From assembly GCA_963678065.2 (NCBI GenBank), contig CAXXVZ010000002.1:677669-741668 (forward strand): DNA of 64,000 nucleotides, in the 5' to 3' direction. The stretch is from Treponemataceae bacterium (lineage in GTDB: Bacteria; Spirochaetota; Spirochaetia; Treponematales; Rectinemataceae). This document shows, one piece after another, positions 4,559-56,150 of the stretch. The notes below the pieces were generated by a model that did no database searches, had not been told where the DNA came from, and saw only the letters and a list, made by a program, of their open reading frames with translations. The first letter of the stretch is position 1, and every line of letters starts with the position of its first letter. The position numbers and the translations under genes are program-made.

Positions 4559-7165
4559 TTACTGAAGAAGACCGAGGGAACGGGCCTTGGCAACCGCCAG
4601 TGTCCGGTTTGAAGCATCCAGTTTGGCGAAGATGTTGCGGACGTGAACCTTGACGGTGTGCGGGGACAGGAAGAGGCTTTCCGCGACGTTCTGGTTGGAC
4701 AAACCCTCGGCAAGGAGAAGAAGCACCTCAAGCTCTCGCTCGCTGAGGAGGTCCTGGCTTTTATGCACCGCCACAACGGGGAAGACAGCCAGGATCCGGT
4801 TCGTATACTCCGGGAACTTCCCTCGCCCGTGCGTCTCCTGAACGAGCCTGCGCATCACAGGCCCCTCGTCGGCAAAAAGGCGCAGGAACTCCCCGGGTTC
4901 GGCGAGTTTGAGCGCATCCTCCAAAGCGTCGAGAGCAATCTCATGGTTTCCGCACGATTCCTGAACGAGGGCGCGAAGAACCAGAGCCCGCAGCCGATCA
5001 TCCTCCCGGTTTTTCACCTCCGAGGTCCAGGAATCCAGAAGCCCGGTCGCCGCCTCAGGCTGTCCCTTTGCCAGAAGGATCCGGATCCGCAGAGGAGGCG
5101 GAAGGCCCTCTGATTCCGGGATGCGGCCCATGCGGAGCGAAAGAAGGGTTCGAGCTGCCTGAATCTCCGGAATCCGGTGCAAAAAGCGGTTCTTCAGCGC
5201 GGTTTGCTCGGCAAGGGCCAGACGCTCTTCCGCCGCTTCCAGGTTTCCCTTTCCCATCTCGACCCTGGCCAGAAAAACCTCGCACGGCACGAAGCGATCG
5301 ACGGAGCTGTCGTACTGGCGTGCCAAAACAAGACCCTGCTCTCCATACGTTCCGGCACTCTCCAGATCGTTCCACTCGTAGTGGATTCGCGCCAGGCCCT
5401 GGTAGGCAACGCACATGTTCGGTTGGGGGTGTTCGCCGGAAATCTGCAGCGCGCGACGGAAAGTCTCCGCCGCCAGGAAAAGCTGGTTGTCATTTTCCTG
5501 CAACTCGCCCAAAGCGAGAGCCGAGAGAATTTGAAAATTGACAACTCCGCCGGAACGGCTGTCCGAAAGAACTTCCTCCAAAATCCGGCGGGCTTCGGCC
5601 CGTTCTCCCGCAAAATGGTGCGCGATGCCCAGATCCCAGAGCGCCGCCACACGAAATATGGAACTATGGTCGGCAAGAAGTTCCAGGGCCCGTCGTGCGT
5701 GAGTCTTCACGTCTTCCACGCGGTATTGGCTGAGGGCGAGAGTTGCCCGGGCCGTCGATATCTGTCCAAAGAGAAGCCGCTCGCTGTCTTCCTTCCCCCG
5801 GAGCGCCGATTCGGCAGCCTGAAGCCGTTCTTCCACTCCCTTGGTTATCCCGGCAAGGAGAGGAAAGGTCGCTGATTTCACCCAGAGCGAGGGGCGTTCG
5901 TTCTTGACCGATTCGGGAAGCTCGGTCAGCCAGCCGATCACCTCCATCATCGCTCCCCGCGTGTGGGTCGGCATGCGGCGATCTTCGATGAGGGCTTCCG
6001 TGCGCGCCGCGTTTCCCGATATGGCCGCATGGCGGAAGGCTTCGACGATGAAGTCGTTCTGCTCGAACCACAGGCTGGCCCGCGAGTGAATGAGCTCTGG
6101 ATCGAGGCAGGATGAAGGCACAGAGGTGGCCAGACGCTGCTGAAGAAGTTCGGCAAAGAGATGGTGGTAACGGTACCAGCGGCGTTCGCCGTCGAGGGGG
6201 ACCAGAAAAAGATTGGCCCGGTCCAAAGCTTCCAGGGTCCCCCTGCCGGTGCCGGCGGGCGACTCCAGAACCGCGTCGCACAGTGACCCGCAAAAGCGTC
6301 CGAGGCAGGAGGTGACCAGAAGGAATTTCTGGACGGCTTCGGATCGCTGGAGGAGGACTTCCTCGACAAGGTAGTCCAGAACGAAGCGATGGCTGCCCGT
6401 AAACGAGGCAATGAACTCGGTCCGGGCGCCGTTCTCTCTGTTCCCCTGGAGCGCCAGGGCCGCGAACTGAAGCCCCGCCGCCCAGCCTTCCGTACGCGCT
6501 TCCAGCGCGGCAATGTCGGATTCCGCAAGGCTGATTTCCATCACTCGGCGGAAAAAATCCCCGACTTCGGCGTATGAAAACTTCAGATCCCTGGCGCGGA
6601 GCTCTGTCATCTGACCGCGGGCGCGGTAGCGGGCCAGAGGGAGTCCCGGGTCTTCGCGGGTGACGAGGACCACGTGGACCCGCGCCGGGAGGTTGTCGAT
6701 CAAAAAGACGAGGATCTCGTCGACGGAAGGGGAGTTGATGGTGTGGTAGTCGTCCAGGACCAGGATCAATTTCTTGTCGCTCTCCGCCAGGTCGTTGACC
6801 AGCCGGGTGAGAAGAGTTTCCAATGAAGGTGGTTGGGGAACCTGGAGGGCGCCCAGCACCCAGGCTCCCAAGCCCGGTTCGGCAGTCTGGAGGGCGGAAA
6901 CAAGGTATGTGAGAAACCGGGCCGGATCGTTGTCCTTTTCATCCAGGGAGAGCCAGGCCGCGCGAATGGGGAGGGCGGCAAGCCATTCGCTGACCAGGGA
7001 GGTTTTTCCGAAGCCCGGAGGAGCGGAGACCAGCGTCAGCTTCCGGGAGAATCCGTCCCCCCGCGACAGGTCTTCACTCAGACGCCGGCTCAGTTCCGCT
7101 CTTTCGACAGCCTTGACGCGGGGAGGCGGAACGAAGAACTTTGTCGCGAGCAAGGTTGCGTTCAT
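4559..7165 (-). CDS. MalT-family STAND ATPase-TPR-LuxR HTH transcriptional regulator
   Basis: [32 protein letters not shown] and a C-terminal LSERELEVL...[16 protein letters not shown]. Confidence 0.95.
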
Positions 7166-7276
7166 GGGCTCGGTTCTCCTGTTCTTGTTTTACTATTCAT
7201 GTTGCCTGCTTGCATCTTCAGTATCGTGCCAGTTTGCCGCGTTTGCCATATCCGATTGCTTGTCATTCTTCTTCGA

Positions 7277-7705
7277 TCAATTTCCGCCGTTATGAGCCGG
7301 TGTTTTTACTACCTGTATCAATACCACAGCGTAGCAGGCAAAAACCGCGACAAATGCAATGAGCATTCCAAGCCGGAGCGCCATGACGGCGGAGCCCTGG
7401 GGAAATATCAGTTGCATGATCACCCTGACCATCCATAAAACACATGTGGCGCCAAGCACGACTATCAAGGAGTACTTGCTGCCCATTTCATCAAAAATCA
7501 GGAGTATGTTCATCAAGCCGAATAACACCAGGCACAATGAAAAAAAAACATTGATTGCCCTGATCGCGATCACCAGCTCCGTGGCCTTGACATCGATATA
7601 GGAATACCAGTTCCAGATTGTCGGCACAAAAAAATGCCATACACCGAAACCGATAGAAACACAGCTCGAAATTACCGCCAAAATTTTATAGAATTTACTG
7701 ACCAT
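7277..7705 (-). CDS. Hypothetical integral membrane protein
   Basis: About four hydrophobic segments; starts 2 nt after the upstream gene's stop. Confidence 0.7.
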   Translation of the reverse strand: MVSKFYKILAVISSCVSIGFGVWHFFVPTIWNWYSYIDVKATELVIAIRAINVFFSLCLVLFGLMNILLIFDEMGSKYSLIVVLGATCVLWMVRVIMQLIFPQGSAVMALRLGMLIAFVAVFACYAVVLIQVVKTPAHNGGN

Positions 7706-7707
7706 GT

Positions 7708-8445
7708 TCAAATCCCTCTGCCGGATCGGCGATTGTACACTACAGGCATGGCCCATTTCCATTTATTCCAGATATCGTTGTTTATAATCAAGTCCGCCAT
7801 GAAATGACCCACGTTTATTCTGCTTGTCTTTCCTGGATTGAACAGTGGACTTCTCGTTGGCGAAGCGCATATTTCATATTCGGAAACATGCGCTTCATGT
7901 ATCAATGAATCGGGACGCACCGCTGTCCATTCGATGATTTTGTCATTCGACCCAATAATCGTCCTCAAATACTCCGCGGCCTGTTCATTATCTTTTTGTG
8001 GCGGTACCAAATTCCGAATCAGAAAGAGAACACATTTTTCCGGCAGTGTTTGTTTTTCATCAAGACTCTTGTTTTTATTGCCTGTCGTATTCATAAGCAC
8101 ATATTTTACGGCTCTTTTGGGATTACTCGCCTTTATGGCAGCACATAGTTTTTTCGTCGCGTCGGTCACCAGGAAACGCGGTTTCCCGAATATGCCTTTC
8201 GGGGTCATATTGTGGCCCAGGCAGGAAGCCACGGCATCACAGCCTCGTACATATTTTGCCAGTGTGGCATCGTCAATATCGAGAATGCTCCCTTGCAGTA
8301 TCGACAATTTCGCTGTTTGCGGAAACTTTTCGCTGGCTGCTTGAGGATTCCTCACTATTATTTTTACGCAGAGGCCGCGCTCCAGAAGCTGAGATACCAG
8401 CAGCTGCCCTGTTGCGCCGCTTGCTCCAACCACCAATACTGTCAT
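7708..8445 (-). CDS. NAD(P)H-binding oxidoreductase (atypical SDR / flavin-reductase-like)
   Basis: VLVVGASGATG Rossmann motif, WTAVRP, SRINV; ATGA overlap with the upstream gene. Confidence 0.85.
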   Translation of the reverse strand: MTVLVVGASGATGQLLVSQLLERGLCVKIIVRNPQAASEKFPQTAKLSILQGSILDIDDATLAKYVRGCDAVASCLGHNMTPKGIFGKPRFLVTDATKKLCAAIKASNPKRAVKYVLMNTTGNKNKSLDEKQTLPEKCVLFLIRNLVPPQKDNEQAAEYLRTIIGSNDKIIEWTAVRPDSLIHEAHVSEYEICASPTRSPLFNPGKTSRINVGHFMADLIINNDIWNKWKWAMPVVYNRRSGRGI

Positions 8446-9116
8446 GATTTTTTCCCGCCCGGCCGCCGTACTCCGAAGACCAGAAGCCAAAAGATCATCG
8501 CCACTTCGGCCACCGTGACCACGACCATTCCGGGCATCGTCAGCGCATCATTCCCGGGAAAAACAAGCCCCACGAATGAAACGATCAGGAATCCGAAACA
8601 ACCTGCCATGAGCAGCACCCCGAGTACTCTCGGTATGAAACCGGATTTGTAGGCCAGCCAGCCGAAGGGGAAAAGCCACAGCCCCCAGAAGATCGTGGCG
8701 ATCAGTATTCCCTGATTGTACAATTGCAGAAACAGCATTGCCCGGGCCGGATCCTGTTGTGCCGCCATAGCCGTGGCAAACAGACCGAGCACACTCATCA
8801 TGGCGATGGGAACGCTCACCAGCACCAGTGCCAGCATTGTTCGGGCCGCGGCCCGGTGGGTATCTCTGAACAAGGCGTAAAGAGCGAGAGCGAGGAACAC
8901 GAAAACCGTCTCGCCCGCAAGTTCGCCGAAACTGCCCATACGGAACAGCACTTCGTTGGCCAGGATATTCCGGACCGTCGTGGCGGCATCGCCGGCAACC
9001 ACGAGGCTGCCCCGCACGATTTCCGCAAACATCCCCAGACACAGAAAAGCAAAATACAGCGCCCCGGCAATTCTGGCGGTCTTTTTTTGGCTCATGTACA
9101 AAGTCGCGTCGTTCAT
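8442..9116 (-). CDS. DUF4386-like membrane protein
   Basis: ARIAGALY...GDAATT..NI...FR, FWGLWLFPFGWL.YKSGFIPRVLG pattern. Confidence 0.8.
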   Translation of the reverse strand: MNDATLYMSQKKTARIAGALYFAFLCLGMFAEIVRGSLVVAGDAATTVRNILANEVLFRMGSFGELAGETVFVFLALALYALFRDTHRAAARTMLALVLVSVPIAMMSVLGLFATAMAAQQDPARAMLFLQLYNQGILIATIFWGLWLFPFGWLAYKSGFIPRVLGVLLMAGCFGFLIVSFVGLVFPGNDALTMPGMVVVTVAEVAMIFWLLVFGVRRPGGKKS

Positions 9117-9553
9117 GCCTTCTTCCCCTCATTCACGGACATCGCGGAATCGGCGGAAGGCAGTTTCCATGCCATCCACATGATTGCCAGCATGCACAGC
9201 ACTTCGACGGTGGCTATGAAAATATAGTGGAGATACGCCGACCCTCCCCCGATCACAAAAACAATCGTGATCACCCCGGCGACCAGATTCATTACCCGGT
9301 TCAGCTTTGGTTTGAGCACCCTGGACAGGAAAATCATGGCAATGGGAATTTCGATGAGAACCGCGAAGACAAGGATCAGTACCTGGTTGAGCTGGATACC
9401 GCCTGCCGTGCCTGTCATCATTTCCTGTAGCGCACCCGGGGTGATGAAACTCAGAATGTCCGCGAATGCCATGTTGATCATCACCACGATCCACAGCATC
9501 GAGATTTTCACTCTTCCGTCCATGCCGGCCGCCCGTCTTTTGTCGTTCATCAT
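9113..9553 (-). CDS. DUF6326-like small membrane protein
   Basis: [19 protein letters not shown]...[17 protein letters not shown]; homologous to 4110..4511. Confidence 0.75.
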
Positions 9554-9801
9554 TCGCTCCTCTTTTCCGTACTGGATACCGGGTTTTCCGGCTCCGGGTA
9601 ACTGAACACATCTTCGATCCGCACGCCGAAGGCTCCGGCGATCTTGAAAGCCAGTTCCAATGACGGGCAGTATTTGCCGTTCTCGATGGTGATGATGGTC
9701 TGCCGGGTCACTCCCACTTTGGCCGCGAGTTCCTGCTGGGTCATTTCGTCCCCATCGAAGCGCAGCTTGCGTATCCGGTTCTGAACCCTGTGGCTGCCCA
9801 T
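9550..9801 (-). CDS. XRE/Cro-family HTH transcriptional regulator
   Basis: NRIRKLR...[33 protein letters not shown]. Confidence 0.93.
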
Positions 9802-9802
9802 G

Positions 9803-10249
9803 TCAGACTCCCCGCCGGTACATGACTAGCTGAGCCACATCCCCGACAAGGCCGGAAACGATCATCGCGGCGCCGATGGCGATCACCAGCGCATGGCCAG
9901 GCATGCCAAAGGCGAGGCAGGCCAGTCCAACCAACACACCAGCCATGAAGAGACCATACGACAGGCTGGTCGCCTTCAGGTCGATCAGCTTGTCCATCTC
10001 GTCCTCGAGGTCCACGGGTTCCGCGTTTGCGGTCACGTGGTGGACTACGGCAAAGACGATCACGGTGACCAGTCTGATAGCCACCTGCAGCGGAACATAG
10101 ACCAGAGCGGCAATGGCCCAGAACACGAGATCGGCCGGGACCTGAACAATCCGGTCATGCCAGTTCAGCCACATGAACAAGAAGTACAATGCCGTAACCG
10201 CCACATTGCTCGCCAAGAATACGATGCCCCGCTTTTCCTGATACTGCAT
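9803..10249 (-). CDS. Hypothetical membrane protein (DExD motif type usually paired with XRE regulators)
   Basis: Four hydrophobic segments, [12 protein letters not shown] motif, ends YRRGV. Confidence 0.75.
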
Positions 10250-10277
10250 GTCTCGCCCCCAAAGCAATGTTTGTCGT

Positions 10278-10310
10278 ACATAATGTACAACATGTTTTAC
10301 ATTATGTCAA
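10278..10310 (-). promoter_or_regulatory. Promoter with overlapping 30-bp palindromic operator (probable XRE autoregulation)
   Basis: TTGACA-17-TACATT on the minus strand; ACATAATGTACAACATGTTTTACATTATGT (10278..10307) is palindromic except for one mismatched pair. Confidence 0.75.
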
Positions 10311-10460
10311 TTGACTTTTTCTTTGTGTATGCATTTTTTGTCATTCATCGGGGTGTTTTGGCCGTCCCGGCGCAGACGTAGGCGCTAGGTCTTCAGCGCG
10401 GCCGGTATTCCTGCATCGATATCGTCGACTTCAGGCGCGGGCGTGGCAGTACCCCGGCGC

Positions 10461-10949
10461 TCACAAAACTCCAAACCAGCGCGAAATCGCGTTTTTTCGA
10501 TCCTCGGAAAAATCCCTCATCACAGTCTCGTACAGCCAGCCCAGTGTCTTGCTCCGAAGATAGGCACGCATCTGTTCTTCTCCCTCGGCGATGACCACTT
10601 TGATCAGGCACGGGCATTTCGATGTATAGATCGACGGGTCATCCACCAGTACATTGGTTTTTCTGATTTCCGCGCACTGAAAGAGGGGCGAAGGCCCTTC
10701 TATGGCCTCGATGATATCCCAGAACGTGATGGCCTCGGGCTCGCGCGCCAATTCATAGCCACCACTGGCGCCGGGGGTCGATCGAACTATTCCCGCTTTT
10801 CGAAGTTTCGTGAAACTTTTCGAAAGATACGTTTCAGTCAGGCGGTTGAACTGGGCAAGCTCCTTGATTCCAACGAGCTTGCCTGCGGGCAGGCCCACTA
10901 AATAGAACAACGAGTGGAACGCATACTCCACACCAACGCTAAATTGCAT
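10461..10949 (-). CDS. Rrf2-family regulator, RsrR-like
   Basis: MQFSVGVEYAFH (E8, H12), YLSK, GGYELAR, FQCAEIR and CPCLI cysteines. Confidence 0.88.
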   Translation of the reverse strand: MQFSVGVEYAFHSLFYLVGLPAGKLVGIKELAQFNRLTETYLSKSFTKLRKAGIVRSTPGASGGYELAREPEAITFWDIIEAIEGPSPLFQCAEIRKTNVLVDDPSIYTSKCPCLIKVVIAEGEEQMRAYLRSKTLGWLYETVMRDFSEDRKNAISRWFGVL

Positions 10950-47624: not shown

Positions 47625-48272
47625 TGTACTGCCTTCAATGGATACGGTCGTTTGTTACAGAGTGCCCGCAGGAATAACAGAAAGAAGACAGTACATTGAT
47701 GGGGTAAAGGCAGAAGCAGTGACGATGGTTGCAGAGCATGGGCTCTTGCTCAGAGAGGCGAGCCGACAATTGAGCATACTCAAGGGAACACTGGCAACGT
47801 AGGTTCGGCATGCAACATCCGAATTGTCATCGTGTTCGAGCTCCCCCGTGATGCCGAGTATAACGACCATGCTGACGGGAAATGCCAGGTTGTGCAAGGA
47901 ATTGAATGAGGACCAGATGGAGCGGGATATCTTGCAAAAAGCAACGGCGTACTTTGCCGGGGAGTCACTGCACGGTAAGCATTCATGAATAATCGACTTC
48001 AGTATCCCGCCAAACTCATGGCGAGAGTCATGAATGTGGCTCATTCCGGGTACTATGCGTGACCGACCGCAAGATTCGCGGGATAGTTCTCAAACCGCTG
48101 ATTCGGGAAGCTCATAAGCCGGAGAGAAAAACCTATGGTTCGATTCGCATCCAACGCGAACTGATGGCTCACAGTATCATGCAGGAAGAGATTGTATTAC
48201 CAGATTGCGGAATAAAATGGGCCTTACATGCATCCAGCACAAAAAGCTCATGGCAACGACGAATTCAAAACA
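47625..48272 (+). mobile_element. IS3-family remnant: left end, disrupted orfA and start of orfB
   Basis: TGTACTGCC end; KAEAVTMV...LSILKGTLAT(stop); MERDILQKATAYFA; RKTYGSIRIQREL; ATTNSKH; contains stops and frameshifts. Confidence 0.85.
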
Positions 48273-48612
48273 CGGACTCCGGCTGGAGCACAGAACACAG
48301 CTTTGTCCGAATGTCGCATTGGGCGCGGAGTGGCAGTGTTCCGGGAAAAGTCGAATCCTTCTTTTTACACTTAGTTAAGCTGCGTTCATTGATGTCTGAG
48401 ATCAAAAAGCTTACGATGAAGACACAGTGTTCGGATCAATCATCAAATCAGACTTTGAACTTCGGGAGAAAGTATTTTGTAGTTTGAAGGACAAGTAAAG
48501 CTTGTTGATGATAGAATTATACTGAACTGTATTACAATAAATGCCTGGGGAAAATGTGTAATGTGCACTTACCAAAGTTTATGCGCAATGATATCCGGTG
48601 GGAGGCTTGTTG

Positions 48613-49869
48613 ATGGGGTTCAGATTCCTTGACCTTTTCGCTGGTGCCGGCGGATTGTCAGAAGGGTTCATCAGGGCCGGGTTTCAACCTGTCGCCCACG
48701 TTGAGATGGACCTTGCAGCGTGTTTTACGTTGAAGACGCGGGCTGTTTTCCATTATTTATCATCTCAGGGGTATTTGACCCCATATATTAACTATCTCCA
48801 AGAAAAAATCAGTCGTAATGACTTTTACAGCCATGTACCGGAACGGATTCTTGATACGGTGATCAATTCGGAAATAGGTCAAGATTCTCTGGATGATATT
48901 TTCAGCCGTATCGACGTATTGGCCGGCGGGAAAAATATTAATCTTATCATCGGGGGCCCGCCATGTCAGGCATATTCCCTGATAGGTAGGGCCCGCGACT
49001 TTAGCGGCATGAAGGACGATAAACGGAATTATTTATATATTTACTATGCCCGTTTCCTTGAGCGGTACAAACCGCAGTTCTTCATTTTTGAGAATGTAAC
49101 GGGCCTTCTTTCCGCCAAAGACCGCGAAGGAAGGGCGTTCTTCGCCGACATGGAGAAAGCATTCAAAGATGCCGGGTATTCATTGGAGAGGGAAGTCCTC
49201 AATGCCGGTGATTACGGTGTTCCGCAAAACCGTAAAAGAGTGATACTTGTGGGAAGAAAAGGCAAGGGAAAAGGGTTTTATCCTCTGCCGGACCAGTGGT
49301 CCCCGGAAGTCCTGGTCGCAGATCTGTTCACAGACCTCCCTAGACTTCATGCCGGAGAAGGCGGCTTTAAACCATGTAAACTGAAAAAAAGATGTCATCC
49401 TTATCTGTATGAATCAGGAATCAGAAACGACGACATCCCGGTCACCGGACATATTGCACGACCGCATCGTTCCCAGGATCTGGAAATCTACCGGATCGCC
49501 GTTGAGTCCTGGAACCATAATCATTCCCGGTTGAATTACAATCAGTTGCCTGATCGTCTGAAGACCCACAATAACAGGCACTCTTTCACCGACCGTTTCA
49601 AAGTAGTCGCGGGGGATTTACCCCGATGTCACACCGTTGTTGCGCACGCATCCCGTGATGGGCATTTCTATATCCATCCGGATATAGAGCAGAACCGTTC
49701 ACTTACCCCTAGGGAGTTGGCAAGGCTGCAAACCTTTCCTGATGATTACTATTTCGAGAGCGCTTCCGGAGCTCCTGCCCGTACCCCAGTGTTCAAGCAG
49801 ATAGGCAATGCGGTACCTGTTCTCCTGGCCCAAAAAATAGCTGAAAAACTGAAGGAGGTTTGGCTGTGA
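48613..49869 (+). CDS. dcm: DNA (cytosine-5)-methyltransferase
   Basis: DLFAGAGG, GGPPCQ, FENV, Q.RKR, RELARLQTFPD, QIGNAV. Target specificity unknown. Confidence 0.96.
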   Translation: MGFRFLDLFAGAGGLSEGFIRAGFQPVAHVEMDLAACFTLKTRAVFHYLSSQGYLTPYINYLQEKISRNDFYSHVPERILDTVINSEIGQDSLDDIFSRIDVLAGGKNINLIIGGPPCQAYSLIGRARDFSGMKDDKRNYLYIYYARFLERYKPQFFIFENVTGLLSAKDREGRAFFADMEKAFKDAGYSLEREVLNAGDYGVPQNRKRVILVGRKGKGKGFYPLPDQWSPEVLVADLFTDLPRLHAGEGGFKPCKLKKRCHPYLYESGIRNDDIPVTGHIARPHRSQDLEIYRIAVESWNHNHSRLNYNQLPDRLKTHNNRHSFTDRFKVVAGDLPRCHTVVAHASRDGHFYIHPDIEQNRSLTPRELARLQTFPDDYYFESASGAPARTPVFKQIGNAVPVLLAQKIAEKLKEVWL

Positions 49870-52031
49870 GTGATAGCGGAACTTACAAGATAAAACCAGC
49901 CGGCCGGCATATCCTGACCATCGGCCGCGATTTGATTCAGGACTGCTATGCGGCTGTTGTAGAGCTGGTGAAAAACGCCTACGATGCTGATTCTTCCGAT
50001 GTTAATATCGAATTCAAGGCAGATCCAGACGACCTCGGCTATTCCATTATCATTTCCGATCATGGTCACGGTATGTCCAGAGATACCGTCATCAACAAGT
50101 GGATGGTGCCCTCCACCAGAGACAAACTTGACAGACATATAAGCCCTTCCGGCAGGATCATGCAGGGCCGAAAGGGAGTAGGGCGGTATGCCGCGTCCAT
50201 TCTGGGCAAGGACCTTTTGCTGGAAACAGTCACCTCTGAAGGCGAGAAAACCACAGTTTTTATCGAGTGGAGCAATTTCGAAGATGCTCAGTATTTGGAT
50301 GACGTGGAAATCCTCATTGACACTAAGCGTGTCGCTGAATCATCAGGGACACGACTGACGATCAGCGGGGACAGAAACCTTCTGCTTGAATGGGATCAGA
50401 GACAATTCGACAAGCTCAGGTTTGAGCTCAAAAAACTGATCTCACCTGTGAGCGCCGCCCTTATCGATGAGCGCGGCGCAGAAGAATTCCGGATCAGCCT
50501 GATGGTGGACGGTTTCCCCGGCGTACAGTATGTCTCGGAAACCGTCGAGCCTTATCCGATTTTTGACCTGTTTGATTACAAGATCACCGGCAGAATCAGT
50601 TCAGCTGGTAACGGTATTTTGACTTATTCATTACAAAAAGCTCGCAATACTACTGATGAAGAAATCCAATTCGATGCTGGTGGACCTACGGGTTGTGGCG
50701 AACTGGTTTTTGACATCCGTGTGTATGACCGCGAGAAAGAAGCTATCGAATCTCTTATCGCACGCGGCCTCAAAGATGAATCAGGCACTTACGTCGGAAA
50801 GCTCGAAGCCAGACAACTACTAAACGAATATAACGGCATTGGTGTTTACCGGAACGGATTCCGTATACGGCCACTGGGTGATGCAGCATTCGATTGGGTT
50901 GAACTTAATAAGCGGCGCGTACAAAACCCTTCAAAGTTTATAGGTAGCGATCAGGCGATTGGGTATGTCCTTATTCAGTCAGAAGAAAAATCAGGGTTGG
51001 TGGAAAAAAGTGCCAGAGACGGCTTAAAATCGAACAATGCCTACAACTCGCTTAAAAGAGTTACAACGGAATTAATCAGCAAGCTTGAAGAAAAGAGACT
51101 TGCTTACAGAATACAAGCCGGGCTAAGCAGATCCGGAAGAAACGTTGATAAAAAGCTTGAAAAACTTTTTTCCGTTGATGAACTGAAGCGGAATGTTAAG
51201 ACCCTACTCACAAAAAACGGGATTGACAAAACAACGATCGAAGGTACTTTGAAAATCATAAGTCAGGATACGGAAAACAGAAACAATATCGCAGATGAGA
51301 TCCGCCAGACCGTAGCTATTTACCAAGGTCAGGCAACTCTTGGTAAAATAATTAATGTGATCCTTCATGAAGGCAGACGCCCGTTAAATTATTTCAGAAA
51401 CCAGATCCCGAACCTCAGGTACTGGTACGAATCATTTCAAAAAACCGGTGACCTGGGAAAGCTGGAAAACCTGGTGCCTATTGTTGATGGTATAGGTCAA
51501 AACGCAGAGTTTTTTGTAAAACTTTTCGGAAGACTTGATCCACTCGCAGCAGCCAGGCGTTCTCCCAAGAGGCCGGTGGCGCTTAAAAAGACAATAAAAG
51601 ACGCTCTGGACGTTTTCGAAGGGGAAATAAAAGCACAGCATGTAATTGCAAAGGTCATTGGCCCCGATGATTTCAAATTCTTATCCTGGCCACAGGATAT
51701 CTATGCAATTATCACAAATCTTGTCGATAACAGCCTCTACTGGATAAATGAAAAAAAGGTTCCCATACGGGAAATCAGAATTGATCTGGTTACAAATAGG
51801 AATTCTCTTCTCTATATCGACTATCACGACACAGGACCTGGAATAGAGCCAAGTCTTATTGCAAGCGAAGTTATATTTGAACCTCAATTCTCTACCAAAC
51901 CATCCGGAACTGGCCTTGGGTTGGCTATAGCAGGAGAAGCTGCCATACGAAACGGCCTTGAGCTTAAGGCATTCGAATCTGAACAAGGAGCTTATTTCAG
52001 ACTACAGCCAAAATCGGAGGAAGAAAAATGA
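49866..52031 (+). CDS. MORC-type GHKL ATPase fused to a C-terminal histidine kinase
   Basis: N-terminal ELVKNAYDAD, D.GHGM, GRKGVGR; central YRNGFRIRP.G..DW; C-terminal H-box ILHEGRRPL, TNLVDNS, DTGPGI, FSTK..GTGLGL. Confidence 0.88.
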   Translation: MSDSGTYKIKPAGRHILTIGRDLIQDCYAAVVELVKNAYDADSSDVNIEFKADPDDLGYSIIISDHGHGMSRDTVINKWMVPSTRDKLDRHISPSGRIMQGRKGVGRYAASILGKDLLLETVTSEGEKTTVFIEWSNFEDAQYLDDVEILIDTKRVAESSGTRLTISGDRNLLLEWDQRQFDKLRFELKKLISPVSAALIDERGAEEFRISLMVDGFPGVQYVSETVEPYPIFDLFDYKITGRISSAGNGILTYSLQKARNTTDEEIQFDAGGPTGCGELVFDIRVYDREKEAIESLIARGLKDESGTYVGKLEARQLLNEYNGIGVYRNGFRIRPLGDAAFDWVELNKRRVQNPSKFIGSDQAIGYVLIQSEEKSGLVEKSARDGLKSNNAYNSLKRVTTELISKLEEKRLAYRIQAGLSRSGRNVDKKLEKLFSVDELKRNVKTLLTKNGIDKTTIEGTLKIISQDTENRNNIADEIRQTVAIYQGQATLGKIINVILHEGRRPLNYFRNQIPNLRYWYESFQKTGDLGKLENLVPIVDGIGQNAEFFVKLFGRLDPLAAARRSPKRPVALKKTIKDALDVFEGEIKAQHVIAKVIGPDDFKFLSWPQDIYAIITNLVDNSLYWINEKKVPIREIRIDLVTNRNSLLYIDYHDTGPGIEPSLIASEVIFEPQFSTKPSGTGLGLAIAGEAAIRNGLELKAFESEQGAYFRLQPKSEEEK

Positions 52032-53122
52032 GCACGTTCCGATTGCTTGTTGTGGAAGATGCTGAAGAAGATCTGCGTGCCTGCAGAGCCACTCTTGTCA
52101 GATATAAAGATGAAAGACAACGGGATATCGAGCTTATCGAATGCACGAATGTCAACGATGCCCTCTTAATCCTGGATAATTCCTTTGATGGTGCAATCAT
52201 TGATATGAATCTATCTGTTGATGGCAATGAAGGAAATCAGGTGATCGATAGAATTATCAATTCAAACCTAAGGATTCCGGTCGCTATCCTCACCGGCACG
52301 CCCGATGCCACTGATACGACCTTTTCCTATATCGGAGTATTTATTAAAGGAGCCCCCGGCGCAGGTTATGCTGACCTCCTGGACATCTTCTGGGGCATTC
52401 ACAATACCGGACTGACCCGCATCATGGGCGGCAGGGGAATCATTGAAGAAAATCTGAACAAGGTATTCAGCCAGAATCTTCTCCCGCAGAAAGGTATATG
52501 GGTAAGTTATGGTGAATCTGATTCCGCGAGAACAGAAAAAGCGCTGCTTCGACATACCCTGAGTCATCTTCTTCAGCTTCTTGATGGTGACGGGGATCGC
52601 TGCTTTCCTGAAGAGGTTTACCTGTCTCCACCTCTTACCGGTAAAATCAGGACAGGGAGTATTGTGAAGAAAAAAGCCGAGCCCCGGGAATTTATTATCA
52701 TGAACCCAGCCTGTGACTTGGCCATCCGGGACGACGGAGGATTTAAAACAGATCGAATCCTTCTTGCTGAGATTGAAGACGGGTCCGATGTAGTAAATCA
52801 TGCATTGAATGGAATCCAGAAAGCCGACAAGCAAAAAACCAAACTTAAAGCGGTTTATGGTAATAATCACACCGGTTATTACCACTGGTTACCTGCAACA
52901 ACTTTTTTCAATGGCGGGTTTGTCAATTTCAGAAAGCTATCTTCTTTGACTCATGAAGAATTTGGTGAGAGTTTCGAGGTACCTTCGATTCAGATTTCTC
53001 CGTTTTTCGTGAAGGATATTGTATCCCGTTTTTCCTCGTTTTACGCCCGCCAAGGGCAACCCGACATTGAATTTAATGATTTAATTACTAATCACACTAC
53101 AAAACCGGAGAATTCTCAGTAA
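52028..53122 (+). CDS. Response-regulator receiver domain fused to an uncharacterised C-terminal domain
   Basis: LLVVED, AIIDMNL (phosphoacceptor Asp), ILTG, K; C-terminal NPACDL...YARQGQPD; no HTH seen. Confidence 0.8.
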   Translation: MSTFRLLVVEDAEEDLRACRATLVRYKDERQRDIELIECTNVNDALLILDNSFDGAIIDMNLSVDGNEGNQVIDRIINSNLRIPVAILTGTPDATDTTFSYIGVFIKGAPGAGYADLLDIFWGIHNTGLTRIMGGRGIIEENLNKVFSQNLLPQKGIWVSYGESDSARTEKALLRHTLSHLLQLLDGDGDRCFPEEVYLSPPLTGKIRTGSIVKKKAEPREFIIMNPACDLAIRDDGGFKTDRILLAEIEDGSDVVNHALNGIQKADKQKTKLKAVYGNNHTGYYHWLPATTFFNGGFVNFRKLSSLTHEEFGESFEVPSIQISPFFVKDIVSRFSSFYARQGQPDIEFNDLITNHTTKPENSQ

Positions 53123-53532
53123 TGGATGTCCACTCGCCGGAACAACGCAGTTTTAATATGTCCCGAATCAGGGGAAAAGATACCCGACCCGAAAAAACAG
53201 TTCGCTGGTGGTTATGGTCTCATGGATATCGTTACCGCTTGTTTCGTAAAGATCTTCCGGGGACCCCGGATATTGTCTTTCCCGGCAAACGGAAAGCCGT
53301 TTTTGTGAACGGGTGTTTCTGGCACATGCATGATTGTACGGACTTCAGGATGCCGATGACCAATACTGCTTTCTGGAAGGAAAAACTGGAAAAAAACAAG
53401 GTGCGGGACAAAAATAATTATCGTGCTCTTCACCATTTAGGTTGGAAGTACAGGATTGTATGGGAATGTGCCCTCAGGAAAGATGAGAAGAGGACCATGT
53501 GTTTCATCAAAAGGTTTTTGGATACACCTTGA
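53122..53532 (+). CDS. vsr: Very-short-patch repair endonuclease
   Basis: MSRIRGKDTRPE, PDIV, FVNGCFWH.H, N..RD, VWEC. Confidence 0.95.
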   Translation: MDVHSPEQRSFNMSRIRGKDTRPEKTVRWWLWSHGYRYRLFRKDLPGTPDIVFPGKRKAVFVNGCFWHMHDCTDFRMPMTNTAFWKEKLEKNKVRDKNNYRALHHLGWKYRIVWECALRKDEKRTMCFIKRFLDTP

Positions 53533-53549: not shown

Positions 53550-54029
53550 ATGATAACTTTTATTGGATCCACGCCTGCAGCTCTCAGAGGAATTATCACT
53601 CATGCCCGGGGCAAGCAATTGAGCAGCGAACATCGCGGGGATATCACCGCCAAGCTATCCTGCCTCGTGCAGAATGGGTTCTTCCTGAAAATCGGTGACG
53701 CCTGCGAGCGGGTATATTACTTTGCGAATTTCACAGATATCAGAACTGTACCGGCTCAGGCCAGGCGCGCTATGATTATCTTTTCACGCGGTTGGCCTAG
53801 ACTTCCTCGAAGGCTCGCATCATCGGTGCTGCGTGAAATTATCTTCGGTCTCTGTGCCGATAAGCTTTTCGAGCTGAAGGTATTGGCCAAGGATCTGCAA
53901 GGCCTGCATGGGGCTTATCTCAATCCCATGGTCTCCGAAGGCCTTCTCGGACTCAGATATCCTGCGATGTACAATCGTCTCAGTCAAGCATACCCTTCAA
54001 CATGGCGAAAAAGAAGGAGCCGGGAATGA
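53550..54029 (+). pseudogene. Probable degraded C-terminal remnant of an AlbA_2/HATPase ('RecG-C') protein
   Basis: H..DIT..L..LV..G and YLNPMV.EGLL.LRYP......QAY resemble that family's C-terminal winged helices; no N-terminal domain. Confidence 0.5.
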
Positions 54030-54059
54030 CTAAGTCCACCTCTCTTCCCGACAACCAGA

Positions 54060-54140
54060 TCACCGGCGGCAAGATCATGACCGGCGATGTGTCAGCAGCG
54101 AAGAATTATCTGAACAAAGATAAAATAGGATATCTCCGGG
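54060..54140 (+). pseudogene. RhuM-family fragment
   Basis: GKIMTGDVSAAKNYLNKD matches the RhuM GKI..SDV..AKNYL motif; very short. Confidence 0.55.
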
Positions 54141-54215
54141 AGAACTTCGGCGGAATCAACCAAGCTGTTCTGAAGGATGCATATTCCACCGACTACTGCG
54201 ATAATCGAGGATATT

Positions 54216-55877
54216 ATGGCCAATAATCCTGATCTGGAGGAAATCCTTTTCTCTCTGCTCGAGCGTCCGGAGTCCGAAACCGTCGAATTCAAGGAAGCGA
54301 AGGAATCCTATTCCTTCGACAAGATCGGGAAGTATTTTTCTGCCCTTGGCAATGAGGCGAATTTAGAAGGCCATCACCGGGCGTGGCTTGTTTTCGGCGT
54401 GAAGGATAAACCTCATGAGATTGTGGGAACGCATTACCGGCCCGGCCGCAAAGACTTGGATAGCCTGAAGGGAGAAATAGCTAACAAGACGACCAACCGG
54501 ATCACTTTCGTCGATATTCATGGGCTGACAGTGGAAGGTAAAAGGGTCCTTCTGTTCGAAATTCCCGCTGCGCCCAAAGGGATCCCGGTCGCCTGGGAAA
54601 ACCACTATTACGGGCGGGACGGCGAAGAATTGTCCGCCCTGAATCTGGAGGAGATCGAACGGATCCGGTCCCAGACTGTTATCGAAGATTGGAGCGCAGG
54701 TATTGTGCCCGGAGCCACTCTGGAGGATCTCGATCCGGAGGCGGTCCTGGTGGCGCGGACGAACTATAAAAGCAAGTTTCCCGAGAAAACCGTCGACATC
54801 GATTTCTGGGACGACAGGACCTTCCTGAACAAGGCAAAACTGACCCTCAAGGGGAAAATGACTCGCACCGCTCTTTTGCTTTTAGGAAAGGATGAATCGG
54901 AGCATTTTCTTCAGCCCGCCGATCCCAAAATTCGCTGGCTGTTGAAGGATAGCCGTAAAAACGACAAGGATTACACGATTTTCGGCCTGCCCCTGTTGTT
55001 GGCGGTTGATAAGGTTTACGCCAAGGTCCGCAACACAAAATATCATTATATCCGCGAAGCCACGCTGTTCCCGGAGGAAACAGACCAGTACGAACCCTTC
55101 ACCATCCGCGAGGCCCTCAACAACTGTATCGCCCATCAGGATTACACCTTGGGCGGACGCATCAATGTAATCGAGATGGAAGACCAGCTTGTGTTCACAA
55201 ACCTGGGGAGCTTCATACCCGGGAGCGTGGAACGGGTTGTGCGCGAAGATGCCCCGGAAGAACATTACCGGAATCAGTTCCTAGCGATTGCCATGTTCAA
55301 CCTCAAGATGGTCGATACGGCCGGCGGCGGTATCCGGCGGATGTTTATGTACCAGAAGGCCCGTTTCTTCCCGATGCCCGATTATGATCTTGAGGAAAAG
55401 CGCGTAAAAGTCACTATTACCGGCAAGGTGCTGGACCTGGATTACGCTCGGTTGCTGTCCCGGATGGCCGACCTATCTCTTGATGAGATCATTGCCCTCG
55501 ATAAGGTCGCGAAGCACCACCCTCTGTCCAATCTGGAGGAGAAGCAAGTGCGTGCGAAAGGGCTTATCGAAGGACGGCGTCCCAATTTCTACATAGCCCA
55601 AAGGGTAGCCCAAGTCACCGGCCAGAAGGCCGAATATTCCCGCAACAAGGCTTTCGATAAAAAATACTATCTGGACCTTATCCTTAAGGCAATCGCCGAG
55701 CACGGCCACCTGAATCGCAGGGATATTGATGACCTCCTGTGGACCAAGCTGCCGGACTGGATGAATGATGACCAACGCAAAAACAAAGTGACCAATCTGA
55801 TTGCCGAATTACGGCGTGGTCATCTTATATATAACAAAGGAACCGATGCAGGACCAAGGTGGGAACGCATCTCATAA
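54216..55877 (+). CDS. Schlafen/AlbA_2 domain + HATPase_c_4 ('RecG C-terminal') + winged-helix protein
   Basis: ESETVEFKEA, SALGNE..L.FGV.D, IREALNNCIAHQDY, YRN..LA, VDTAGGGI. Confidence 0.85.
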   Translation: MANNPDLEEILFSLLERPESETVEFKEAKESYSFDKIGKYFSALGNEANLEGHHRAWLVFGVKDKPHEIVGTHYRPGRKDLDSLKGEIANKTTNRITFVDIHGLTVEGKRVLLFEIPAAPKGIPVAWENHYYGRDGEELSALNLEEIERIRSQTVIEDWSAGIVPGATLEDLDPEAVLVARTNYKSKFPEKTVDIDFWDDRTFLNKAKLTLKGKMTRTALLLLGKDESEHFLQPADPKIRWLLKDSRKNDKDYTIFGLPLLLAVDKVYAKVRNTKYHYIREATLFPEETDQYEPFTIREALNNCIAHQDYTLGGRINVIEMEDQLVFTNLGSFIPGSVERVVREDAPEEHYRNQFLAIAMFNLKMVDTAGGGIRRMFMYQKARFFPMPDYDLEEKRVKVTITGKVLDLDYARLLSRMADLSLDEIIALDKVAKHHPLSNLEEKQVRAKGLIEGRRPNFYIAQRVAQVTGQKAEYSRNKAFDKKYYLDLILKAIAEHGHLNRRDIDDLLWTKLPDWMNDDQRKNKVTNLIAELRRGHLIYNKGTDAGPRWERIS

Positions 55878-55977: not shown

Positions 55978-56150
55978 ATGACACGCCTCACAGTGTCCGC
56001 CATCGACCTCCTGAAACACTAGGGCTACCGTTGTCTCTACGGCCCCGACATCGCTCCCGACAGCAGGAGTCAGACTCGCCATTCCTTCGGGGAAGTGATT
56101 CTCGCCGGTCATCACCGGAATGCCCTCGCCAGGGTCCCTATTCACTTCCA
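55978..56150 (+). pseudogene. hsdR: N-terminal remnant of a type I restriction subunit R
   Basis: MTRLTVSAIDLLKH*GYRCLYGPDIAPDSRSQTRHSFGEVIL...RNALAR has the HsdR N-terminal GY...GPDIAPD...R.SF..V.L pattern, with an in-frame TAG at 56020. Confidence 0.7.

Follow-up and report, generated by a model that had tools for sequence, protein, structure and literature searches.

Profile comparisons place a methylase, MORC-kinase, receiver and Vsr cassette of a Treponemataceae bacterium in a compact branch of the HEF_HK/Response_reg_2 class, with a possible role in place of a restriction enzyme

We analyzed a 64,000-nucleotide stretch of a Treponemataceae genome (NCBI GenBank assembly GCA_963678065.2, contig CAXXVZ010000002.1, positions 677,669 to 741,668 of the forward strand), here called the window, which carries a four-gene cassette at 48613..53532 on the forward strand. 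An earlier reading of this DNA, made from the letters alone and referred to below as the sequence-only reading, had described four intact, overlapping genes with preserved catalytic motifs. The four open reading frames (ORFs), their GTGA, ATGA and TAATG junctions and the motifs were confirmed. Searches against Pfam and NCBIfam assigned the proteins, in order, to C5 methylase, to HATPase_c_3 (start) and HATPase_c (end), to a weak receiver domain, and to Vsr, and each of the four genes was single-copy in the genome. The features of the locus are listed in Table 1.

Table 1. Features of the cassette and of the low-GC island around it (positions in the window)
Feature	Position	Strand	Basis
C5 cytosine DNA methyltransferase, 418 amino acids (aa)	48613..49869	+	Best PADLOC model DrmMII (PDLC02649, 534 bits)
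MORC-type GHKL+S5 ATPase fused to histidine kinase, soluble, 721 aa	49866..52031	+	Domain matches, model
Receiver protein, 364 aa	52028..53122	+	REC, helical segment, tail domain
Vsr very-short-patch repair endonuclease, 136 aa	53122..53532	+	Family match
Sigma-70-like promoter match with TG extension	48488..48517	+	Consensus match only; about 95 nucleotides before methylase start
IS3-family transposase remnant; left flank of low-GC island	47881..48009	+	
ORF of 159 aa without family, downstream of vsr	within 53550-54064		
McrC-like stretch in decayed DNA after vsr	53939-54064		Weak match (35% over 52 residues, E 1e-5)
Intact AlbA_2 (Schlafen) + HATPase_c_4 gene, same low-GC island	54177..55877	+	Family match
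hsdR-like remnant, broken start	55984-56130		

The 721-aa protein consists of a GHKL+S5 ATPase (residues ~1-415), a helical linker, an H-box that contains His501 and reads HEG, and a kinase catalytic domain (~566-716). The model for BbrUII/HgiDII restriction enzymes (NF050001) matched residues 19-167 only, at 56 bits against a cut-off of 550. The N-terminal MORC-type GHKL+S5 module is what the protein has in common with these enzymes and with the paraMORC ATPases, which sit in restriction operons (Iyer et al., 2008, PMC2292703), whereas its C-terminal part is a histidine kinase (HK) and not the BbrUII/HgiDII nuclease part. The receiver retains the acidic pair, Asp, Thr and Lys of REC, and its predicted model (predicted local distance difference test score 84.6, 83 alignment rows) comprises the REC domain (1-130, with Asp59), two long helices (138-186) and a beta-rich tail (~192-348). 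A soluble kinase with two GHKL modules and an intact receiver, both proposed earlier, were thus borne out by the domain matches and the model.

Two-component-like elements composed of HEF_HK (PF19191) and Response_reg_2 (PF19192) proteins have been described computationally; in its accessible part, that description assigns no output domain and reports no experimental test (Bellieny-Rabelo et al., 2021, PMC8011034). The cassette shares with them a soluble HATPase_c_3, H-box and HATPase_c kinase, an adjacent receiver, a C5 methylase upstream and Vsr downstream, and differs in its H-box (HEG, not HEF) and in the sizes of its kinase and receiver (721/364 aa vs about 1000/550). Neither Pfam model matched directly: the kinase had no match to PF19191 (positive controls from loci L164 and L165, 96 and 94 bits), the receiver had none to PF19192 (controls, 111-112 bits), and PF19192 was absent from the 25 families listed for 133 relatives of the receiver. 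Of 151 genomes, 4 yielded the four true Response_reg_2 proteins used for profile comparison. Their tails aligned with the cassette tail in HHalign over 135 columns (probability 95.4%, E 1.8e-8), with a score of 61.8 against a maximum of 18.8 in 40 shuffles. Likewise, two true HEF_HK kinases matched the profile of the cassette kinase (E 2e-47 and 4e-45), and the true HEF_HK locus L165 has the order dcm-HK-REC-vsr. By these profile comparisons, the kinase and the receiver share descent with true members of the class, and this homology of tail and kinase marks the cassette as a compact branch of the class with a common output domain.

That output domain, the tail of the receiver, carries the motifs TG..V, PxCD and YxRQGQP. 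Among 182 non-redundant tails, P227 and C229 were invariant, and D230 (99%), G210 (98%), R341-Q-G (96-97%) and H286 (92%) were strongly conserved. A profile search found the tail in 1023 clusters at 50% identity, and the majority of the best 150 proteins were receiver-sized. No model in Pfam, NCBIfam or PADLOC covered the tail, either in this receiver or in its 133 relatives; weak PDC-M60B matches occurred in 22 of these relatives and not in the receiver of the cassette. An hmmsearch of the tail against PDB sequences found no family, and in the ESM Atlas the tail matched only clusters without a name, with lengths of 118, 194 and 199 aa (score 0.90-0.92), which may be stand-alone tails or fragments. 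In two database proteins (P0425 and P0313), a methylase front is fused to the receiver tail; these are probably deletion products or assembly joins.

The strand and helix order of the modelled tail resembles that of the PemK/MazF/CcdB toxin fold. When the whole receiver model was compared with viral models in Foldseek, three PemK/MazF-labelled proteins were among the best 50 matches (E 0.006-0.021), at ranks 24, 29 and 46. The best of these had an E of 0.006, a probability of 1.00, a TM-score of 0.69 of the target and a root-mean-square deviation of 5.2 over 147 columns. Because the PemK fold is distinct from that of REC, and an alignment of 147 columns is of the right length for the tail including its helical insert (about 252-277), these matches appear to cover the tail. 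In a fold search of the PDB with the whole receiver as query, the listed matches were almost all REC-type, and the absence of PemK there is uninformative. The tail also differs from PemK in several respects. First, it has the helical insert. Second, and against a PemK-like fold, the HHalign comparison of the tail with 26 PemK proteins scored within the shuffles, i.e., no sequence-profile similarity to the toxins accompanies the predicted fold, and the tail is fused to a receiver. These 26 came from 29 loci, of which one gave no reading frame and two, read in a wrong frame, were excluded. Third, the catalytic motifs of PemK/MazF, R-P and P-x-T, are present in 24 and 21 of the 26 PemK rows, whereas, in a register set by eye, the Arg of R-P is found in 14 of 182 tails and the P-x-T position mostly reads E-I-E. 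Additionally, no antitoxin gene was seen with the tail-bearing receiver. Taking these results together, we lean with modest confidence toward a PemK/MazF-like fold for the tail, and we doubt that it would act as a MazF-type ribonuclease (RNase).

We then considered the gene neighborhoods of relatives, counted over 75 non-redundant loci with denominators that vary by gene. The kinase and the receiver were adjacent in 65 of 66 loci, and this linkage holds in dozens of loci across phyla. A methylase of the same subfamily precedes the pair in 43 of 53 loci, also remaining adjacent where the gene order is rearranged; an adjacent copy is missing in 10 of 53, and pairs also occur with other methylases or without any. 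Vsr lies downstream in 40 of 60 loci and is an accessory gene. Of the four-gene unit proposed in the sequence-only reading, the kinase-receiver core therefore stood, but the methylase proved to be exchangeable or missing and Vsr dispensable. The majority of copies lie in chromosomal defense islands, in agreement with the context proposed earlier, and the neighboring systems vary between loci. The same reading had supposed that no separate restriction enzyme belongs to the operon and had named a neighborhood search of homologues as the means of refuting this; the search found no conserved nuclease, and an HNH gene stood beside the kinase in L056 only. Downstream of vsr, a 179-aa gene recurs in L002, L003, L019-L021, L051 and L083, often followed by a gene of ~460 aa, and a 485-aa gene recurs in L053, L058, L060 and L063, the last of which adjoins phage capsid genes; none of the three has a Pfam or NCBIfam match.

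The best argument concerning the role of the pair comes from the partners of the methylase. An Acinetobacter wuhouensis plasmid carries a methylase with 57% identity to that of the cassette and, after it, the gene for a 648-aa protein, which the BbrUII/HgiDII model matches over its length (315 bits; curated cut-off 550); this arrangement, a BbrUII/HgiDII-like protein behind the same methylase subfamily, is that of L153. In the viral contigs L156 and L157, a methylase with 60% identity is followed by another MORC-kinase (702 aa, 25% identical) and a receiver. A tree of 32 methylases groups the three swap-locus genes in a single branch, nested within the clade of the cassette gene (21 rows, support 100/98); the tree is rooted at the midpoint only, and we claim no order of events from it. 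Within one methylase lineage, the partner is thus either a MORC-headed restriction-enzyme homologue or a MORC-kinase with its receiver. It is therefore likely that the kinase-receiver pair fills the restriction-enzyme slot, which supports the earlier suggestion that the pair stands in place of a classical restriction enzyme. The receiver of the phage-like L156/L157 loci (6239-10496) is a receiver-like protein of 452 aa that carries an xCD motif and, at its C-terminus, an RxG motif; it had no significant similarity to the cassette tail. A convergent ORF of 241 aa in these loci has no Pfam match.

The methylase itself gives a weak lead to its target. Despite the DrmMII match, neither of the DISARM core genes drmA and drmB was found among the island ORFs; a relative of the methylase at L154 adjoins a helicase and a DUF1998 gene. 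DrmMII and EcoRII are linked to CCWGG, and EcoRII-like contexts were also found. In an analysis of palindrome depletion across 44 cassettes, no single target motif stood out; CCWGG reached 0.65 of the expected frequency and CCSGG 1.20, in related sequences in which CTAG and GTCGAC were equally low. Together, these data point only weakly to CCWGG as a candidate methylation target.

Tested systems indicate that relays of this type can defend against phage, although both of those considered here differ in parts from the cassette. Ambrosia (AbrR, AbrA-D; methyltransferase (MTase)-HATPase-REC-HNH) blocks phages and needs the receiver Asp (bioRxiv 10.1101/2025.09.30.679545). As far as that preprint is accessible, Ambrosia likewise combines a methylase, a HATPase histidine kinase and a receiver in one cluster, and its XRE regulator, N6-adenine methylase, winged-helix receiver and HNH nuclease are its own. 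By description rather than by sequence, the cassette is set apart by its C5 methylase, its Vsr, the lack of a nuclease and the beta-rich tail; no helix-turn-helix family matched its receiver, whose modelled tail is beta-rich and not an Ambrosia-type winged helix. In Detocs (DtcA/B/C), a kinase-receiver relay defends against phage, with an effector fused to the receiver where a DNA-binding domain would be expected, as is proposed for the cassette (bioRxiv 10.1101/2023.01.24.525353). The kinase of Detocs bears TPRs, its buffer receiver (DtcB) stands alone and its effector is mostly a PNP; the accessible part of its report mentions neither a methylase nor a MORC module. No such buffer receiver or TPR-bearing kinase was found in the cassette. 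In the accessible text of the DefensePredictor study (PMC13092281), HATPase and REC appear in the legend of a figure on systems that were predicted but not validated. The class itself, as the sequence-only reading had stated of the architecture, is known from comparative genomics (PMC8011034), and the related Ambrosia has been shown to block phages.

We propose that unmethylated DNA triggers a relay from His501 to Asp59, and that a toxic tail then arrests the cell, the pair likely replacing a restriction enzyme; we put the probability of this reading at roughly 0.45. In this mechanism, the methylase would mark host DNA, and the clamp formed by the GHKL+S5 module, a relative of the N-terminal part of BbrUII/HgiDII, would read DNA that lacks the 5-methylcytosine (5mC) mark. 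ATP-driven closing of the clamp may be transmitted through the helical linker to the H-box, such that unmarked incoming DNA would lead to phosphotransfer from His501 to Asp59, and the phosphorylated receiver would release or assemble the tail. To arrest the infected cell, the tail might then use C229-D230, H286 and R341-Q-G and not an RNase site of the MazF type; one possibility is that it binds a host protein, in the manner of CcdB. Vsr would repair the T:G mismatches left by 5mC deamination, a role described for Vsr in the accessible part of the class description (PMC8011034). A bolder version, which we hold only tentatively, is a signaling restriction system with a BbrUII/HgiDII-derived MORC clamp and a PemK/CcdB-fold killer tail of non-MazF chemistry, this tail being the effector, so far unrecognized, of the HEF_HK/Response_reg_2 class as a whole, in which it would span about a thousand protein clusters.

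The alternative that survives best, although we consider it somewhat unlikely, is a defense phosphorelay whose trigger is independent of methylation (DNA ends, replication structures or a phage protein), with the methylase as a passenger or a downstream component, as proposed for Ambrosia. The occurrence of kinase-receiver pairs with other methylases or none agrees with this, as do the GHKL ATPases that also head Shedu-type nucleases and the Ambrosia methylase, which gives no protection according to the accessible part of the preprint (bioRxiv 10.1101/2025.09.30.679545). Nevertheless, the persistence of one methylase subfamily beside the pair, even in rearranged loci, and its pairing elsewhere with a MORC-type restriction enzyme speak against this alternative. 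It is distinctly less probable that the kinase and receiver kill nothing themselves and regulate the expression or activity of neighboring restriction-modification genes, as Bellieny-Rabelo et al. (2021) speculated: among 133 diverse receivers, no DNA-binding family was found beyond single chance matches, the systems next to the cassette change from locus to locus, and several copies have no restriction genes in the scanned flanks.

A selfish addiction module seems improbable. In such a module, loss of the element would let methylation fade, the lingering kinase would see an unmarked chromosome, and the receiver would kill. The predicted toxin-antitoxin fold of the tail is compatible with this, and mobile copies exist: the kinase and the methylase match 41 Campylobacter plasmid records (the receiver, 22 records), and some copies lie in viral contigs or beside integrase or Tn7-like genes. 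Against it stand the prevalence of chromosomal defense islands and the absence of any match in 50,697 phage records; moreover, its chemistry would be that of defense, so that it differs from the proposed restriction-like relay in purpose only. A blastn search of complete Escherichia coli genomes with the Yersinia copy gave no match. The Campylobacter conjugative plasmids include L100 and L155 (one named pTet); among the 50 rows listed for the Campylobacter matches, 16 showed a kinase match split into two or three pieces.

An ordinary restriction-modification island from which the nuclease has been lost at this site, beside an unrelated two-component system, would agree with the McrC-like and hsdR-like remnants downstream, but is very improbable and already largely refuted by the neighborhood counts, given the overlapping frames, the linkage across phyla without a conserved nuclease, and the same gene order at the true HEF_HK locus. 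These remnants, together with the 159-aa ORF, suggest that additional defense genes have decayed downstream of vsr; a comparison of this decayed DNA with RhuM, as a possible remnant, gave no support.

The island around the cassette has a GC content of 0.44-0.49, compared with 0.60-0.67 in its flanks, and no terminal repeats marking its boundaries were found. When 300 other genomes of the phylum were searched, one contained a full-length receiver, the remaining listed matches being to the REC domain only. From the low GC content, the single copies and this rarity, the cassette is a sporadic, horizontally acquired unit. There were two promoter-like matches in the 400 nucleotides examined (shuffles, 0.8 ± 0.9). 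The AlbA_2/HATPase_c_4 gene is not a conserved part of the cassette, as one related gene was found in 97 loci (L061); it had weak PADLOC matches to pAgo-associated and PDC-S50 models.

In summary, the cassette is real, intact and widespread. It is a variant of a gene class that had already been described from comparative genomics and that has an experimentally tested cousin; what is new here is the common output domain, which may have a toxin fold, and the exchange of partners in the restriction slot. In the literature searched, from which most subscription papers fell outside, we found no test of this cassette and no assignment of a PemK-like tail. The candidate effector domain, with its conserved C229, D230, H286 and R341, belongs to a widespread class and makes the question directly testable in one 4.9-kb cassette. 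If the proposed relay is true, the reading of self and non-self by methylation would feed a two-component relay that ends in abortive death instead of DNA cleavage, and the cassette would provide a simple bacterial model for how a MORC ATPase converts the state of DNA into a signal.
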